IMG/VR virus record: IMGVR_UViG_2671180268_000014
DNA: 43,810 bases
Strand: one strand, 5' to 3'
From: a virus
Lineage: Duplodnaviria > Heunggongvirae > Uroviricota > Caudoviricetes
Position 1 is the stretch's first letter. Each line of letters opens with the position of its first letter. Shown here piece after piece: positions 2,794-18,197 of this stretch. The notes under the pieces are model-generated. The model was not told the DNA's origin and ran no database searches. It saw only the letters and a list, made by a program, of their open reading frames with translations. The translations under genes and the position numbers were made by a program.

Positions 2794-5386
2794 TTGCATA
2801 TTCCTTAGCCCAGCGGGGCAGTGATAACGTCTTAATAGCTGGCCATTCATCGGTATTGAGGCAGTCAGCCAGGGTTCGCAGATTGCGGTGATATTCCAGC
2901 TGACCTGCCAGTTTTGCTTCTTCGCCCATCATGAAAATTTCAACCGGATAACGTCCGCATTCAATAGTTGTGCTGGCAACCAGAAAAACGAAAGTTGGCT
3001 GCACTCCAAACTGTGCTTCATAACCGTCACTGTAGAATGCATCCTGAACGTGATAGCGGTAGTCGTAATAAGCGGTTTTGAATCGTTGAATATCCGCCGT
3101 AGTTTTCACGTCCATGATCCAGTGAAATTCAGGGATAATTTTGTCCGGACGGCACCGACACAAAATTGCTGTTTCAGGATCTTCCCAGTAAATTGATGAT
3201 TCAGCGTGTCCGGCGCTTTCAACAAGCCATTGCCCCAGCGGCAAAGCCATAACGCTCTGATACATGAGTTCAATTTTCCGGCCTTCTTCGGCAGTGATAA
3301 CCGTTTTTCCTGTGCTTGCGCATTCCCTCAGAAACGCTTTCTCTTCTTCTTTTCCGGAGTTTGTCCGGCGGTTAAATTCAGGTGCTACGATAAAGCGGTT
3401 ACTGAATTCTTCCGGCTCAAGTACCCGGCAGTGGAAAGCGGTTCCTAAATCGAGCGTTTTTGTCTTTGTGGTGTCCACGGGGGCATTTTTACGCCACAAA
3501 TACAGTGCCGGAGTATCAGCAATGTCATCGAGCTGAGACTTACTGACACCGGGACCCGCGTGGTAATTCTCATTCGAAATTCCGTAATAAATACCTGGCT
3601 CTATGTCTTCTACGATTACGGGATCTGCGACTTCGCCAGTTTCATCACTGCAATCGCGATGCGGATCGCTGCCAGCATTCTCATTGTGCGGATGTTCAGC
3701 GCCTTCCATTTCCTCCGGATCATTTTCCTTAGCTTCAACCTGACTCTCTTCATCGAATGTTTCCTGGTATGTTGCGTCGCCCATCACCGCACCACAGTCA
3801 GGGCAGTTATCCCCGCCAGTCTGGCCGCAGGCATTGCAGGCTATTTCCGGTTCCTGTTGCACTACTGGCTCAGGTTGATTCATATCCGGGCTGGTTTTTT
3901 CCGTTTCTGGCTGGTTCTGGTACACACAATCGCGAGTCTGGATCCCCTTTACCCATTTCGGATCGTTCGGGTCGCTAATTCCGTCAACAAATTCACCACG
4001 TGATGCAGCAAGCAATTTATCGGCATCGACAGGATTTTTTGATGGAATGTTTTTCCGGGCTTCATGGAGTTCTGCCCGCAGTTCCTGATATTTCGCATCA
4101 ACAGAATTTACCTGTGACTGAGCATCCAGCGGCTGCGTGTCCTGATGATGTTCAGTTGCGTCCGGTTCCATTGTTTCAGCCTCTCCCTGTTCAACTGCCG
4201 TTGTTCCAGATGGTTGCGGTTTTTCTTCATCATCCTGTTTTCCTTCTTCTGTTACTCGCTGCGGCATCGGGGCAGAGGAGCGACCGCAGGCAATATCCAC
4301 GATTTCCGGATCAGGGTTGGCATGATCGGTTTCAGTCAGTACTTTGTTCAGATATTCAGTGACGTGCGCGGGGATGACCTCGATCCCAATTGGTGCTTCT
4401 TTTACGGACGCAACCACGATGGCGCGGGAATAATCCAGCCCGCCAGGCATGGTGATGAATTTGTCGCGGAAAACAGAAAAGGGCGGTTTATTTTCAGCGA
4501 TAATTTCCTCAATGCGTTTAGCGTGTGCCGGATGAAGGTTATAGATGTCCAGATCCATTGAACGGGCCAGTACGCCAGTGGCTACGTCCCGCGCCAGTGA
4601 CGTCAGATCGTGTACGAAACCTTCGCCGCGATCGGTGAGGTTTCCGCCGCCAGCATTAGCACCGGAAGCCGTGCGAGTGATGTGTGAAACACGATTACCC
4701 TTCATCCACTCTTTTGTCAGCAGTCCTCGATCGGTGTAGTCAGCGTTCAGGTATGCTTCGAAAAAAGCAGTTATCAGTCCCAGGTTTGAATTACCAGGAT
4801 TAGGGAAAACTTTGTCAGTGTCACGAACCAGTTTGTGGAGTTCGCGAATTTCCAGCGGGTCGAGCAGGCTGGTTTTGTGGGAAACAGCCAGGGCAGTAAC
4901 AGCCGGTAGTTCTTCAGCCCGAGCAATGTGTAATGCCTGGAGTCCGTCGCGTGAAACGTGCGTTACCGGTTTTTCGCTGCCGTGTTGAGCAAGCCAACGA
5001 ATGGGCAGTTCCTGGCCAGAAATTGGGAGTAGCATATTCTCCTCAATCTCAGTCATGTCTTCGCCGTTGACGTTGGTATTGCCTTGATAGTGAGCGTTGT
5101 CTGGTGCTGCTCCCGGTTTTAGTTCCCATGTCATGGAGTCTTTGCTGAGTTGATAGCGTTCACTCCAGGTAAAATCGATCTCACCTTCAGCGGGCAGGTC
5201 ATTAACGACAGGAAAATTCGTGGCAACAGCTTTAAAATAGCTGCTCAGTTTTTTACCTGACTTAACGATCAGGTAGTCCAGAGTGGCACAGGTCGATTCA
5301 AAATCGTTGCTTGCCCACAGGACGACGTCAGGTTCACCGGATGATTTTTTCGCTTTCCGTAACAGGAAGAGTGGTTTTGTGCTCAT
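2786..5386 (-). CDS. recE: Exodeoxyribonuclease VIII (RecE), full length 866 aa
   Basis: 866-aa ORF immediately upstream of recT, same strand; length and C-terminal nuclease region fit Rac RecE. Plus-strand ORFs inside it are antisense artefacts. Confidence 0.9.
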
Positions 5387-9795: not shown

Positions 9796-10226
9796 ATGAA
9801 AAATATTGCGACAGGCGACGTTCTTGAACGTATCCGCAGACTGGCCCCGTCACATGTAACCGCGCCATTCAAGACGGTAGCGGAGTGGCGCGAGTGGCAA
9901 CTTTCCGAAGGCCAGAAACGTTGTGAGGAGATCAACCGTCAGAATCGTCAGTTGCGGGTGGAAAAAATTCTGAATCGCTCTGGCATCCAGCCATTGCACC
10001 GCAAATGCTCGTTTTCGAATTACCAGGTGCAGAACGAAGCGCAGCGATACGCGTTGAGTCAGGCGAAATCCATCGCTGATGAACTGATGACCGGGTGTAC
10101 AAATTTTGCGTTCAGCGGAAAACCTGGTACCGGGAAGAACCACTTAGCGGCAGCTATCGGGAATCGCCTGCTGAAAGACGGTCAGACAGTGATTGTGGTT
10201 ACCGTGGCTGATGTTATGAGTGCCCT
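9796..10226 (+). CDS. DnaC-like AAA+ helicase loader (YdaV-like), 3' end lost in assembly gap
   Basis: Walker A GKPGTGKNHLAAAIG. The ORF runs into the N-run at 10227; the true stop is not observable. Confidence 0.7.
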
Positions 10227-10556
10227 NNNNNNNNNNNNNNNNNNNNNNNNNNNNNNNNNNNNNNNNNNNNNNNNNNNNNNNNNNNNNNNNNNNNNNNNNN
10301 NNNNNNNNNNNNNNNNNNNNNNNNNNNNNNNNNNNNNNNNNNNNNNNNNNNNNNNNNNNNNNNNNNNNNNNNNNNNNNNNNNNNNNNNNNNNNNNNNNNN
10401 NNNNNNNNNNNNNNNNNNNNNNNNNNNNNNNNNNNNNNNNNNNNNNNNNNNNNNNNNNNNNNNNNNNNNNNNNNNNNNNNNNNNNNNNNNNNNNNNNNNN
10501 NNNNNNNNNNNNNNNNNNNNNNNNNNNNNNNNNNNNNNNNNNNNNNNNNNNNNNNN
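10227..10556. other. Assembly gap (run of N)
   Basis: 330 consecutive N. The X-runs in ORF-track proteins are artefacts of translating it. Confidence 0.99.
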
Positions 10557-10580
10557 AATTTTTACCGGGAGGAAATTTTT

Positions 10581-11342
10581 ATGGAGACTGTTTTTGACGC
10601 ACTGAAAGCAATGGGAAAAGCCACATCCATAGAACTTGCTGCGCGACTTGATATCAGTCGTGAAGAAGTGCTGAACGAACTATGGGAACTGAAAAAAGCT
10701 GGTTTCGTTGATAAAAGCGCGTACACCTGGCGTGTGGCTGATAACAACGTTCAGCAGGAACAGCCAATGCAGGCAGAACTGCCGGAAGAAACCACCACGG
10801 CAACTGTAGTGAAAATCTCAGAGTGCGATTTAACCGCGACGATTGAACAACGCGGACCACAAACGGCGGATGAACTGGCTACGCTGTTCGGTACAACATC
10901 CCGCAAAGTTGCTTCAACGCTGGCAATGGCAATCAGCAAAGGACGCCTGATTCGCGTAAACCAGAACAGTAAATTTCGTTACTGCATGCCGGGCGATAAT
11001 TTACCAGCAGAGCCGAAAGCTGCATCGGTAGCGGAAACTGATGGTAAAGCCTTTCCTCAGCCAGCCGGTGTTGCGTTACCAGTACAGGAAGCGGCAACAC
11101 AGGAAGATATTAAAACAGAAACTGTGGCGGACATTGTGCAGTCGCTGCCATCGTTTACTGAAACGCAAGCGGATGACCTAGTTTTACCATCGCTGCATAT
11201 GGCAAACCGCGAACTGCGTCGGGCGAAAAATCATGTCCAGAAGTGGGAGCGAGTCTGCGCCGCGCTGCGGGAGCTGAACAAGCACCGGGATATTGTCCGA
11301 CAGATTGTCGATTCCTCCAGTCGTATTGTGTCGGAAAAGTGA
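10581..11342 (+). CDS. Hypothetical early protein, probably winged-helix (YdaW/DUF1627-like)
   Basis: ATG at 10581 with GGGAGG SD. N-terminal segment [30 protein letters not shown] is wHTH-like. Confidence 0.4.
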
Positions 11343-11774: not shown

Positions 11775-11930
11775 ACGTTACTAGATCAAAGAGCATTAGT
11801 TCATATGTAAATTGACATTTTTCTGGCACAGGGGAGAGCTAGCGTGGTTGTCCGCTTTGTGCCAATAGCGGACATTGCTGGCTCATGGTATGTTAGTTTA
11901 AGGAGGCAGGTTATGCCCTGTATTTCGCTG

Positions 11931-11939
11931 TGGTATAAT
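11931..11939 (+). promoter_or_regulatory. Extended -10 promoter element (TGgTATAAT) for the AT-rich cassette
   Basis: TGGTATAAT read directly at 11931-11939, about 34 nt upstream of the GTG at 11973, which has an AGGGAG SD at 11958-11963. No strong -35. Confidence 0.4.
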
Positions 11940-11972
11940 AGTTGCGCAATTGATACAAGGGAGCGTTACATC

Positions 11973-12935
11973 GTGAAAATTGTTTTCGAGGTTAATGGAA
12001 AGAAAGTTCCACTAAAATCTTTAAAATACATAAGCAAAAAAGATCAACTCGAAGTAATGAAAAACTGGTTCTTTGAAAACTTTGAAGATCCGGCAAATGC
12101 TTGTCCGTATGAAAGTAGAGAAGGTGGCTATGCTTACATATATGGCGGGCCGTATGATGCGAGCGAAGAACTACAATCCATCTTCGGTCAATATGTTAAA
12201 TCTGAGTATATTGAGGAATTAGTAGATGAATTACAAACACAATGTTTTGACTGGTCTGGAAACTCAAATAATATAGATGATTGGTACGATGATGATATCT
12301 ACGACGCTGTAACGTCTTCCGGTAATCCGTATTTAAAATTCATTGATAATATCGATAAAATAAAAAAACTTGCAAAAGATAAAACTGAACAACAGCAAAA
12401 AAACCACTTGCTTAGTTTGCTCTACACGAATGTTATTACAGCTTTGGAAACGCTTTATGTTGAGCTATTCATTAATTCTATAGAGAAAGATGATGTCTAC
12501 ATAGCCAATTGTATAGAAAAAGGTAAGACTGAATTTAAAGTAAGCAAAGATATTGCTGCGTTGCCTTTCAAGGGTGAACCCATCGAGAAAATTAGGGGAG
12601 AGCTAATCAGGTCAATCAAGGAACACTTGATCAGTGCAAGCTGGCATAGCACTAAAAAGGTAATCGACCGCTATGAAGCTACATTCGATATAAAAGTACA
12701 AAAAGACTGTCCGATAGAAGCTATTGAATTGGCAACCCTCAATCGAAATCACTTAGTGCATCGTGGTGGAAAGGATAAAGAAGGGAACCTCGTAGTGATT
12801 ACAGACCAGGATCTTGAAACGCTGATTGAAAATGCATCGAACCTGGCAATTATGCTCTACAACAGTTTAAATGTAGCAACGAATAAAACCACCATTTTGC
12901 AACCAGATGACAAACCGTTCATTCATGAATTTTAA
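11973..12935 (+). CDS. Cassette gene A: hypothetical protein with C-terminal Rx4H (HEPN-like) motif
   Basis: AT-rich ORF. GTG start with AGGGAG SD preferred; the six-frame ORF extends upstream to 11844. RNHLVH at 12744-12761 in a helical C-terminal region. No family recognised. Confidence 0.5.
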   Translation: MKIVFEVNGKKVPLKSLKYISKKDQLEVMKNWFFENFEDPANACPYESREGGYAYIYGGPYDASEELQSIFGQYVKSEYIEELVDELQTQCFDWSGNSNNIDDWYDDDIYDAVTSSGNPYLKFIDNIDKIKKLAKDKTEQQQKNHLLSLLYTNVITALETLYVELFINSIEKDDVYIANCIEKGKTEFKVSKDIAALPFKGEPIEKIRGELIRSIKEHLISASWHSTKKVIDRYEATFDIKVQKDCPIEAIELATLNRNHLVHRGGKDKEGNLVVITDQDLETLIENASNLAIMLYNSLNVATNKTTILQPDDKPFIHEF

Positions 12936-12950
12936 TAGCGCAGGTCATAC

Positions 12951-13952
12951 ATGGATATTCGCACACGAAAGACAAAATTTTTAGAGTCGTTAGATTCAAC
13001 TGAAGTGATACGCAAAGCAGTAAGTCTCGCTATAGATTGCATTATTGATAATCATAATAGTAATGAAGATACCCCCTTAGTTATTACCAGCTATGATGAT
13101 CTCTGTAGAATCCAGGTGCTAAATTATGTACAGGAGTTTTGCGAAGCTGCATTCCCTGATATGGATGAATATTACTTTAGTCCTAACATACTTCGCATCA
13201 ACGGCAAGACTAGTGAAGAAGCTTGTATTAACTTAATTAAACTCTTAAGAAGTACAAAAGGCATGCTATTCTGGTCCGATGCCCCATCGTGGTTCGCTAG
13301 CCTCCCCGACGGATTATTCCATGTTGTTAACATTGATCAAAAAATCGTTACTCGCGGCCTTAATAAGAAAAACTCTAAGCCGACAATAATCAATAAAGAT
13401 TACAGTGTAGATACACTACTATCAGAGCTATTTTTGAATGGCGCACACATGGAGCAACCCAACGTACACAACGTTTCTGAGGGAAACATGAAGTTCTATG
13501 ATGAATGCCATGCTGGATTAATCAGACCAATACCCGCTCCAATAGGCGCGTCATACGATGAAGAGATCACAATTAATTCTCCAGATTGGCAAAAGCTCGC
13601 GTGTGTAGCTTTACGCCGCTATCAGTCGAAGGAATGTCATGACGGAATGCAATGGGATACAACCGATCATGGTTGGACTGATGTAATCGCGTATCCATTC
13701 GTCGAAGAAATACAATCAATGGATAATAGTGGTTATCGACAATGTTTAGTTGGGCTGGTCACAATAAACAATTCAAATGCAAATTCTCCGTACCTATCTA
13801 CCGTTTGGATACATCCATTTTATCGCAGGAGAGGGTTATTAAGTAAGTTATGGCCAAAATTACAAGAGTTATATGGAAGTAACTTCGAAATTGAGCGACC
13901 TAATGAAAATATGAAAGCATTTCTGAAAAGTGCGAAACACGCAGATTACTAA
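12951..13952 (+). CDS. Cassette gene B: hypothetical protein with GNAT-like C-terminal motif
   Basis: AT-rich 333-aa ORF 15 nt downstream of gene A. C-terminus VWIHPFYRRRGLLSKLW resembles the GNAT motif A strand-turn-helix. Fold assignment is inference only. Confidence 0.5.
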   Translation: MDIRTRKTKFLESLDSTEVIRKAVSLAIDCIIDNHNSNEDTPLVITSYDDLCRIQVLNYVQEFCEAAFPDMDEYYFSPNILRINGKTSEEACINLIKLLRSTKGMLFWSDAPSWFASLPDGLFHVVNIDQKIVTRGLNKKNSKPTIINKDYSVDTLLSELFLNGAHMEQPNVHNVSEGNMKFYDECHAGLIRPIPAPIGASYDEEITINSPDWQKLACVALRRYQSKECHDGMQWDTTDHGWTDVIAYPFVEEIQSMDNSGYRQCLVGLVTINNSNANSPYLSTVWIHPFYRRRGLLSKLWPKLQELYGSNFEIERPNENMKAFLKSAKHADY

Positions 13953-14572
13953 TTTATGAATCAGTCTGTGGAGTTAGGGTTGGTGTGAACAAGTAGGGTA
14001 AGAGCCTCAACGTGATGCTATGCCGACCTGCTCCCTGAGAATTCACACAGAAGGCTGCTAGCAATGTCTGCAGATCGCTCAAAGCGGACTAAAATGTTGG
14101 CTTGTTTCTGACTTAGAGCATTTAAGGAAGTGCTGGTGGTGACTGGTTGTTGTGTTCCATTTCTACAGAATAAAATCACAGAAACTATACCCAATAGTTG
14201 TATTGAATCACTGACGAGACAGCCTCATATTTATCAGGACTGGTGTGCGTCTAATACAGGGGGTTGTCGTGCTGGTTCTCAAATGTGCGCTGGCTATTGC
14301 GGCTGTAATGGCAATTTATTGTCTTGCTGTTGTTCTTATGGAGCGGCTTTCTGATTGATTACATACTGGCTAGAAAAAAGGTGTTACCTTGGTTTATCTT
14401 TGTCCGGCAAGGTGCGCTCATTAATCTTAAGTAAATTTATTGCTCAAGTATTCAGATTACTTCTTATGGTTGAAGTCTCCTGTCAATGTAGAACCAATAT
14501 ATTTACAAAAATGAGACCCGTCGGGGATAGCCCTGCCGGGTCTGACTGTTAAAGCATTTTTAATATGATCAT

Positions 14573-14911
14573 CTATTTTTTGGTGCTATAGACTTTTTCG
14601 CCCGAAAAGTCTGGAGCGACCCAAAAGTTAATATTAAACTGAGCATCATCGCTTAGTTCAACACGGTGCCAGTATTGTGGTGGGCTTGTTGCAAAAGCGC
14701 CAGCATTAATGACTACTTTTATCTCCGGTTCAGTAGCATTCTCATCAGTAAAACCATAATATGTTACAGTGCCTTCCATTACGCACAACTGCCCAAAAAC
14801 ACCTGCTGCTGTATTATGATGTGTTAATAACGCTGAAGGTACGTTCTCTTTTGTGAAGAACGGAGTTGAGCGTTTGATTACCCAATCTTTAGGAATTCTC
14901 TTGTGTGTCAT
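14573..14911 (-). CDS. YeaR-like DUF1971 protein
   Basis: Start at internal ATG 14911 with GGAGG SD. Segments RSTPFF and FNINFWVAPDF resemble recalled E. coli YeaR (RSTPFW, FNIDFFVAPE). Confidence 0.55.
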   Translation of the reverse strand: MTHKRIPKDWVIKRSTPFFTKENVPSALLTHHNTAAGVFGQLCVMEGTVTYYGFTDENATEPEIKVVINAGAFATSPPQYWHRVELSDDAQFNINFWVAPDFSGEKVYSTKK

Positions 14912-15724
14912 AACCACCTCCTCCAAAACATGCATTAAAAATGCATCTTTTGGAGGGTTATGTCAAGCTGTTATGAAACACATAATTGATATGTTGATTA
15001 GAGGAGAAGATAGAATAAATATGGTTGTTTTTCGTATAACTATTTGTTTTACTTTTAGTTTATGCATTCTGTGTGTTAGGAATAAGTTATTAAAGTTTAA
15101 TCAAAAAATCTCGATGTAGTCCACATAGATTACTGTTACTGAACCTTATTGTGTGTATTAGTTGTGTTCTGAAATTTCAGCTTAATTATTTATGATGTAT
15201 TTTTTAACGATAAATATTTTCCCAGGATACCTTTACTGTGTATATAAATAAATTATATACGCATAAATAATGTAAAGGCGTCCTTTTAGATATATCTTAT
15301 CAAATGTTAATGACTTGAGTGGGAAATATGATTCCAGCAACTTATCATGTGGCTACTTTATAAAAATAATGCCCATATAAAACAACAAGCGAAAAGGATT
15401 ACGGATAAAAAAGGAGCGAGATGTGCGAACTTGTTATTTTCCATGTTTAACCACCTTAAATAATTGATGATGACGGGATGATTGCATCTGTAATGCTTTT
15501 ATTGAAATGTTATGATAAAAAAGAACTTTTGCATAACATTAAAATGTAATTTATCTAATCGTTTTTAATAATAAGTGTCGTATTTCTATCCTTGTACCAG
15601 CTATTTGATATGTAGTGTTTGTTCATGCTATGTGGGGCTTTACACCATAGCCAGTTTATTTATACTTTATTCGTCAGCCTGAACAACTGGCATCTGCTGC
15701 GCTGCGCCATCGAGAGATTGAGAA

Positions 15725-17606: not shown

Positions 17607-18197
17607 GGGCTGGTTTATTGTATGCCAAATGATTATTAAAAAGGTTGTGTTAATAACAAGATCCGAAATAATATGCCTGCATATTTTTATCTTGCTTATA
17701 TTCTGCATATTGTGCATAGCAGGCTCATCCCTGCAATCAAAACTGTATGATGAGTATTTTTTGTTTTCCTTTTTTCCAGTCATCTGATGATGACCTGCTT
17801 CTTTTTAATCCGGATCGACATCAGTTTTTTAAGATAATTCCTGCGAGTTATATGCATAAATGCCACAAACTCCGCATTTTATGTGGTTGGGAGTTGCCGG
17901 GCGCGCAGTGAGTTTGCTAAGAAAACTCCTGCATGGTGAATCCCCCTGTGCGGTGGGGTGATACCATTAACCTTTTCTGTCGCCGACAGGTATCACGAAC
18001 ATTTTGTTCACCGGGAGGCACCCGGCACCATGCACTTCAATAGATTCTCTCCACATTATGGATATTCTTTCAGAATATCCCACGCAGACTTTGTGTAAAT
18101 GTTAACAAATGTGCGTTTTATTTGATCTGATTCGCTGTTTGAGCGTCCAAAACAACGGTATATATAATCCTTTACTATATGACATATGTGAGGAAAA

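Follow-up and report, generated by a model that had tools for sequence, protein, structure and literature searches.

What does gene B of a Rac-like prophage encode? The gene lies in the Caudoviricetes record IMGVR_UViG_2671180268_000014 of IMG/VR, a stretch of 43,810 nucleotides (nt) referred to here as the window, which represents a Rac-like lambdoid prophage of E. coli with recE/racC/kilR/sieB/ydaT/ydaU on its left side and nin-type genes (DUF1367/DUF1364/DUF1133) and lysis genes on its right. Together with the gene upstream of it (gene A), B forms an island bordered by the replication module and the nin region, with a GC content of 33-42% against ~50% in the flanks. Working from the sequence alone, an initial annotation had noticed a GNAT-like motif near the C-terminus of B. 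We found that B joins a divergent domain that very probably has the GNAT fold to an N-terminal domain that is an inactivated P-loop fold. On balance, we lean towards reading B as an acyl-CoA-dependent acyltransferase with an inactivated P-loop control domain that would act in conflicts involving mobile elements and phages.

The C-terminal domain of B and its predicted cofactor core

The interval first marked as GNAT-like, 13680-13952, corresponds to residues 244-333 of B plus the stop codon and contains the peptide CLVGLVTINNSNANSPYLSTVWIHPFYRRRGLLSKLWPKLQELYG (residues 265-309, nt 13743-13877). We modelled B with AlphaFold2 from 41 homologues (predicted local distance difference test, pLDDT, 90; predicted template-modelling score, pTM, 0.81) and assigned secondary structure by DSSP. 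The strand, R-x-x-G and helix described by the initial annotation were all present in the model, as a strand at residues 281-287 (YLSTVWI), a loop at 288-295 (HPFYRRRG) and a helix at 296-308, followed by a short strand (313-314) and a further helix (319-327). The segment had been located correctly but drawn too short, as the GNAT-like domain begins near residue 186 (Table 1) and its elements follow the GNAT order beta1-alpha1-alpha2-beta2-beta3-beta4-alpha3-beta5-alpha4.

Profile searches also related this domain to GNATs. Residues 181-333 alone (153 residues) scored 21.5 bits against PF00583 (Acetyltransf_1; E=3e-4), over the gathering cut-off of 20.7 bits, and the same family was matched at E<=0.1 by 25 of the 41 full-length relatives and by 13 of the 24 sequences in the C-terminal-domain alignment, with best values of 5e-6 to 6e-6; the relative P0198 reached 24.2 bits. 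Among proteins of known structure, a domain-only profile found the minimal GNAT RibT (5xxr, E=0.002) as the nearest match, over beta3, beta4 and motif A, with HPFYRnkGLL of the B family opposite NPSHRHQGIG, which includes the RibT motif RHQGIG. A Foldseek search of the viral models in BFVD placed phage GNATs at the top of its ranking, with weak and generic matches, and returned no full-length analogue of B. NCBI labels some B homologues, and fragments generated by insertion sequences (IS), as "GNAT family N-acetyltransferase".

By itself, an R-x-x-G following a strand carries little weight, and a fortuitous motif in a domain unrelated to GNATs could explain why PF00583 scored only 19.9 bits on whole B (E=9e-4), 0.8 bits below the cut-off, and why the full-length family profile found no GNAT among PDB sequences, its best hit being radical SAM protein noise at E=0.029. 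The Pfam, RibT-profile and Foldseek results taken together nevertheless indicate that the R-x-x-G of B is not accidental, and a chance resemblance is so clearly contradicted by the fold and the profiles that we give it almost no credence. We also looked for a non-GNAT fold and for confident homology to an unrelated family, the two outcomes that the initial annotation had named as fatal to its proposal, and neither appeared in the model, the Pfam scan or the RibT comparison.

The lead-in and beta1/alpha1 (residues ~190-225, window 13518-13625), where the family profile reads IRPxxAxxGxxFDxWITxxSPxWQRxxxxQLRR, also weakly matched the core of the bS18 ribosomal proteins of many species (E 0.09-1.4). 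We rejected this likeness of the domain's first ~40 residues, which amounts to a single, non-significant family-level match in a region that the model shows as an ordinary GNAT beta1/alpha1; it is probably due to chance.

Whether the fold is also catalytic is a separate matter, and several features count against an active enzyme. Motif A, expected between beta4 and alpha3 as Q/R-x-x-G-x-G/A, reads R292-R-R-G295-L-L297 in B, and L297 is the replaced second glycine for which the match had rightly been called weak. The last position is hydrophobic (L or M) throughout the family and never G/A, and G295 is itself replaced, by R, Q or other residues, in 5 of the 24 domain-alignment sequences and in a few full-length members. 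The chain ends at residue 333, 6 residues past alpha4, where the model is empty beyond helix 319-327. This leaves no space for the usual beta6/beta7, and the model accordingly contains no such strand beside beta5. The tyrosine of alpha4 that often serves as general acid is absent too. The Pfam score of B is borderline, and several remote relatives had no Pfam match of any kind. With neither the tyrosine nor the C-terminal strands, B may have a non-catalytic GNAT fold.

These departures are what would be expected of a pseudo-enzyme that keeps the GNAT fold without binding acyl-CoA or catalysing transfer, and that works through binding or scaffolding, perhaps by sequestering a phage or host factor. 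Both domains would then be inactivated enzyme folds, as the N-terminal one clearly is. The pattern of conservation speaks against this alternative, since the residues kept at the greatest distances (H288, P289, R292, P317 and M321) form the cofactor core and not surface patches. No full-length member deviates at W286, H288, P289, R292, P317, M321 or F324; with stand-alone relatives added (160 residues, 24-37% identity), P289 and R292 still show no exception, and H288, P317 and M321 are kept in at least 90%. The remotest of 468 profile matches cover only positions ~277-330, that is beta4-alpha3-beta5-alpha4, the core that holds acetyl-CoA in GNATs. Such concentration of conservation in the remotest relatives argues for a conserved cofactor site in B rather than a decaying one, as far as can be judged from alignments. 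RibT, the best sequence match, is a similarly short GNAT and reportedly has CoA bound in its structure. Moreover, GNATs bind the CoA pyrophosphate through backbone amides, so a changed side chain in motif A need not abolish binding. We therefore regard a pseudo-enzyme as doubtful, and judge the chances that B is an active transferase to be evenly balanced.

The beginning of the domain is also distinctive. A lead-in of the form I-R-P-x-P-A-P-x-G precedes beta1, with R192, A196 and P197 invariant in the full-length family, and residues 194-195 form a two-residue strand in the full-length model that is not seen when the N-terminal domain is modelled in isolation. We suspect that the lead-in may pair with beta5 and so replace the absent beta6/beta7. 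The family as a whole can be recognised by the signature W-x-H-P-[FY]-x-R ... P-x-[SN]-x-[AN]-M-x-x-F-L, for which Pfam has no dedicated model and which PF00583 detects weakly. B thus differs from the other members of the GNAT superfamily (PF00583, RibT) in the leucine at the last G/A position of motif A and in lacking beta6/beta7, and from ordinary GNATs in its conserved IRPxPAP lead-in, its fusion to a unique N-terminal domain and its membership of a sequence family of its own.

The N-terminal domain and the breadth of the family

The N-terminal two thirds of B, left unassigned at first, can now be described as a P-loop-NTPase-like alpha/beta fold of the AAA+/STAND type. Residues 1-185 form a three-layer alpha/beta core with a parallel sheet, as in AAA+/STAND proteins, and resemble the NB-ARC and Orc1/Cdc6 cores. 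The Walker A sequence GxxxxGK[ST] expected after strand 1 is absent from the family alignment, in which this loop is TSYDD for the window copy and, for example, VGGDN, TCLSD or SHGME for others; it follows that the domain is an inactivated P-loop fold, and it probably does not hydrolyse NTP. The hhhhD segment (MLFWSD in the window, LLYWAD elsewhere) is a candidate Walker B by sequence, and D29, N34, R100, H124, R135 and N138 make up a cluster of further conserved polar residues. Searches of Pfam and NCBIfam and a profile search returned no sequence relatives of this domain outside the B family. We rejected a kinship of this domain with the DUF3987 primase-helicases encoded just upstream of stand-alone relatives (below), for which the hhalign probabilities were 0.3% and 0.5%. 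We infer a role of the domain in recognition, regulation or oligomerisation.

We found no earlier description of an architecture that combines an inactivated P-loop fold with a minimal GNAT. The RNA cytidine acetyltransferases TmcA/NAT10, in which a helicase-like P-loop domain is also followed by a GNAT domain, resemble B in domain order only. They exceed 650 residues and possess, besides an active ATPase with Walker A, a tail that binds tRNA, whereas B has neither Walker A nor extra domains and gave no Pfam match to their families. With the AAA+/STAND sensors of single-protein defence systems (Avs/NLR-like), B shares a likeness of fold and the joining of such a domain to an enzymatic effector in one polypeptide, but it has no Walker A, helical lid, winged helix or repeats, and 185 residues are too few for a working STAND switch. 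B is a divergent, architecturally new variant of the well-known GNAT superfamily and is not a relative of TmcA/NAT10.

The family extends well beyond the window. A word-indexed search gave 66 clusters of B homologues, and all those with an organism name were from Gammaproteobacteria. An exhaustive profile search gave ~10 full-length representatives (at 50% clustering) and a larger set of stand-alone proteins of 150-180 residues that match profile positions ~180-330 (E 1e-37 to 1e-12) and all likewise terminate after alpha4. The genes of these stand-alone relatives occur on one phage-like contig and on small integrase-bearing elements, and had no conserved partner gene at the loci inspected. 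Remote proteins of 450-570 residues (P0234, P0242, P0244 and P0250) end in W-[IV]-H-P-[FY]-x-R-x-x-G...P-S-x-A-M-x-x-F-L and look like a larger, uncharacterised branch of this GNAT-like family; Pfam scans of P0234 and P0242 gave no match, and at least P0234 contains an additional, degenerate copy of the module further upstream (FIWCHPFVR).

Among viral sequences, B was found on prophage-type viral contigs only: a tblastn search of the phage GenBank records in INPHARED with B gave no match, as did a scan of viral contigs with a single stand-alone protein (P0226). In PHROGs, B matches phrog_16994 at E=4.5e-246, and this group, that of gene A (phrog_17908) and that of the stand-alone form (phrog_36762) are all labelled "unknown function".

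Gene A, the predicted shared promoter and the independence of B

Gene A is a candidate HEPN ribonuclease (RNase), judging by its sequence. Its GTG start agrees with RefSeq and with the conserved upstream DNA; it scores 22.2 bits against PF18870, and both PF18870 and PF18735 are recorded in its homologues. None of 21 diverse homologues, which reach down to 26% identity, departs from R258, H263 and R264 (R-x4-H-R). A shares the HEPN/RES-NTD1 signature and the invariant Rx4H with the MAE_18760/RiboL-PSP-type HEPN family, which was described computationally (Anantharaman et al. 2013, PMC3710099); in the passages searched, no GNAT partner was linked to this HEPN family. P4-like satellites and the ends of prophages harbour intact A-like genes (71% and 56% identity) without B, and A is therefore probably a candidate for single-gene defence or abortive infection by itself.

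Upstream of A, the sequence TGGTATAAT is inferred to act as promoter. A consensus promoter scan missed it because its -35 is weak, and it was recognised by reading the sequence and by conservation: TGnTAYAAT and ~75 nt upstream of A (window 11900-11972) are kept in E. coli, Serratia (locus L006) and Aeromonas (L033), where the flanks differ. Such upstream DNA, kept in differing surroundings, indicates that the mobile unit consists of promoter, A and B. The 15-nt spacer between the genes recurs in Aeromonas (4985 to 5001) and on a Providencia plasmid (4288 to 4304), which are both of the cases measured. Of 5426 complete E. coli genomes, 209 (~4%) have A and likewise 209 have B, UTI89 and the type strain ATCC 11775 among them, and 205 E. 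coli genomes contain at least 80% of the 2.2-kb pair at one place. Paired copies were also found in Serratia grimesii (98% and 95% identity to A and B of the window), on an IMG/VR contig (L058; 96/92%) and in an integrative mobilisable element of Aeromonas (86/79%), whereas on Klebsiella, E. coli and Citrobacter plasmids B alone was matched. The backgrounds in which the cassette occurs are prophages, integrative mobilisable elements and plasmids.

The coordinates of these features are collected in Table 1.

Table 1 Features of genes A and B in the window
Feature	Position (nt)	Strand	Description
Extended -10, TGGTATAAT	11931..11939	+	34 nt upstream of the gene A GTG; read from the sequence; predicted promoter
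Gene A	11973..12935	+	320 residues, GTG start; WP_014639476.1; phrog_17908
Gene A, HEPN/RES-NTD1 domain	WFFENFEDP 12066-12092; ESREGGYAYIYGGPY 12111-12155	+	
Gene A, HEPN domain, RNHLVHR (Rx4H)	12744-12764	+	
A-B spacer	12936..12950	+	15 nt, AGG ribosome-binding site
Gene B	12951..13952	+	333 residues; from the list of open reading frames; WP_000354966.1, RefSeq "hypothetical protein"; phrog_16994
Gene B, N-terminal domain	12951..13505	+	Residues 1-185; P-loop-NTPase-like alpha/beta fold without Walker A loop
AIDCIIDN	13029-13052	+	Conserved motif
PLVITSYDD	13074-13100	+	Loop after strand 1; variable across the family
MLFWSD	13263-13280	+	Walker-B-like; D110 conserved in at least 90%
TRGLN	13350-13364	+	Conserved motif
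Gene B, GNAT-like domain	13506..13949	+	Residues ~186-333; includes lead-in IRPIPAP 13521-13541 and beta1/alpha1 ITINSPDWQKLACVALRRYQSKE 13566-13634
beta4 YLSTVWI, motif A loop and alpha3	13791..13877	+	Predicted CoA pyrophosphate-binding element; DSSP of the model, conservation, RibT alignment
Motif A loop HPFYRRRGLL	13812-13841	+	R292-x-x-G295-x-L297 at 13824-13841
beta5 NFEIERP and alpha4 NENMKAFLKS	13881..13931	+	Motif-B equivalent; DSSP

The arrangement of A and B in one operon, with a shared promoter and a conserved spacer, would suit a toxin-antitoxin pair of the HEPN-MNT-like kind, in which A would be an RNase toxin that B neutralises by acetylation or binding. The two genes also co-diverge, as the identities above show, and there are loci where A has decayed and B persists, as expected of a toxin and its antitoxin: islands of Citrobacter/Enterobacter (L036-L039, 4791-4982) retain only codons 257-320 of A, the last 64, beside an intact B, and a Providencia rettgeri plasmid (L026, 3337-4285) has a frameshifted A spread over three frames, again beside an intact B. 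Unlike HEPN-MNT-like pairs, however, A and B do not co-occur obligately. At 86% identity or less, every lineage carries B without A (Rahnella, Citrobacter/Enterobacter, Shewanella, Idiomarina, Marinomonas, Colwellia, Paraglaciecola, Neptunicella and others), and the solo A-like genes are intact. Furthermore, in E. coli SF-173 (L067, NZ_CP012631.1, 2501-4279), an IS1 insertion near residue 187, where the two domains meet, interrupts B next to an intact and identical A, although the N-terminal part of B might still be produced there and suffice to neutralise A. Solo B, solo A-like genes and SF-173 exclude an obligate toxin-antitoxin relation, and on the same grounds we rank such a pair as very unlikely. 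In another strain, E. coli MB56 (L068, 1706-5068), copies of ISSen4 lie on either side of A.

These observations suggest that A joined an older, autonomous B, and the pairing is limited to one terminal clade, made up of the E. coli Rac-like prophage, Serratia, Aeromonas and plasmids. The term cassette used at the outset fits the promoter-plus-two-gene unit of that clade but does not describe B at large, which is older than the pairing and independent of it.

The HEPN partner, by pointing to RNA and translation, also bears on a different kind of toxin. The initial annotation had alluded to GNAT toxins that acetylate aminoacyl-tRNA, and B could be imagined to act like TacT, AtaT or ItaT, acetylating the amino group of aminoacyl-tRNA and halting translation in an abortive infection, with the N-terminal domain restraining it until infection. 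In common with TacT, AtaT, ItaT and KacT, B has the GNAT fold, carriage on prophages and mobile elements and a setting of conflict, including defence islands, and its attached, regulatory-looking domain could stand in for an antitoxin. Those toxins are single-domain proteins of ~160-180 residues with an adjacent DUF1778/ribbon-helix-helix (RHH) antitoxin gene and a defined aminoacyl-tRNA substrate, whereas B has 333 residues in two domains, is usually solo and has no sequence match to their families. No small RHH/DUF1778 antitoxin gene is conserved beside B in ~15 distinct loci, where the upstream gene is either the HEPN gene A or unrelated. With its missing antitoxin gene and different architecture, B does not look like a TacT/AtaT-type module, the hint found no support in the form in which it was given, and we consider a tRNA-acetylating toxin of this kind unlikely.

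Elsewhere in the window, a run of masked bases (N) at 10220-10560 makes the translation of a DnaC-like replication gene (9796-10605) unreadable there. The region between B and the nin-type genes (13953-15700) is long, AT-rich and mostly non-coding, with GC falling to 27-32% at 14800-15600; its sole gene is DUF1971/TehB-like (14573-14935, minus strand), and other strains have hokD in the corresponding region. Further downstream, an Rfam match to the small RNA STnc100 lies at 17901-18087 (+; 86.6 bits, E=6e-18).

Genomic setting and possible function

Several B genes, solo or paired, lie beside defence-type genes. Neighbours include SIR2-HerA (L009), a McrB-like AAA protein with REase_II matches and an adjacent gene read as McrC-like (L006), a ThsA-like SIR2 (L015), a TerB_N/AAA/helicase cluster with Mrr_cat and HEPN_Toprim_N genes (L004) and a SIR2-cREC pair (L032-35). 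At L008, B is in a conjugative-type element, as judged from its open reading frames, and at L010 it adjoins genes read as a HigBA pair. In Rahnella (L007, 7847-8599, minus strand), the gene downstream of a solo B encodes 250 residues with LRNRIAHGQW, a HEPN-like Rx4H, and had no PADLOC match.

Together with the foreign GC content and the promoter of the cassette, the neighbours of B point to a function in conflict. This must be set against a number of less favourable results. The association with defence islands amounts to ~5 of ~15 distinct loci, a raw count from a small sample, and in Neptunicella (L003) the B homologue sits amid housekeeping-type chromosomal genes. PADLOC-DB v2.0.0 contained no family matching B at E<=10, and a literature search gave no mention of WP_000354966, WP_014639476 or the three PHROG identifiers. 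For gene A, PADLOC-DB v2.0.0 returned noise only (E>=0.011); NCBIfam had no informative match for either gene, and literature on HEPN together with GNAT consisted of general conflict-system papers. The association with defence that was first suggested is supported by genomic neighbourhood only. We consider it fairly likely that B has a role in conflict, either in defence or in exclusion.

The position of the cassette in the window, directly after the ydaU/DnaC-like/DUF1627/DUF977 replication module, raises the alternative that B and its stand-alone relatives are replication accessories acting on the machinery of the element or the host, all the more as the N-terminal domain resembles initiator/loader AAA+ proteins. 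In keeping with this, stand-alone genes lie directly 3' of a DUF3987 primase-helicase gene on the phage-like contig (L027, 3619-5411, where the two overlap) and on an integrase-bearing element (L029, 2653-5492), and at L002 B follows a gene of 919 residues, as called, that is primase-helicase-like by motif reading. The slot after the replication genes is, however, a common site for accessory cargo in lambdoid phages. The cassette moreover has its own promoter and foreign GC and has moved between unrelated backbones, many B loci are without nearby replication genes, and B gave less than 1% hhalign probability against the neighbouring DUF3987 proteins. A replication accessory is therefore very unlikely indeed.

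From the fold, motif, domain architecture, distribution and linkage described above, cofactor binding, catalysis, a target and a defence role can be proposed as follows for the acyltransferase reading that we prefer. The divergent minimal GNAT domain would take an acyl group from acyl-CoA, the inactivated P-loop domain would recognise the target or exert control, and the acyl group would be moved to a macromolecule, such as a protein or charged tRNA, during a conflict between mobile element, phage and host. B would work as an autonomous single-gene module, and in the terminal clade it would have been joined to the HEPN RNase gene A behind a shared promoter and be co-expressed with it. A bolder version, which we put forward only tentatively and think improbable in full, holds that B is a hitherto unrecognised single-gene system against phages or mobile elements in which the inactivated AAA+/STAND-like domain senses an invader component and frees the minimal GNAT effector to acylate a translation or replication factor; with the HEPN RNase it would form a two-effector module in enterobacterial and Aeromonas elements, and the phage-borne relatives of 160 residues would be an ancestral or counter-acting form.

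The GNAT assignment makes a "hypothetical protein" present in ~4% of complete E. coli genomes a testable enzyme candidate. To our knowledge, few described anti-phage systems use an acetyltransferase as effector, and the family combines an architecture for which we found no earlier description, a sequence family of its own with stand-alone forms on phages and mobile elements, a recurrent defence-island location and a HEPN partnership within one clade. An inactive B would show how two enzyme folds can be put to new use as binding modules; should activity and a target be demonstrated, the acylation of protein or RNA would join the known chemistry of mobile-element conflict.

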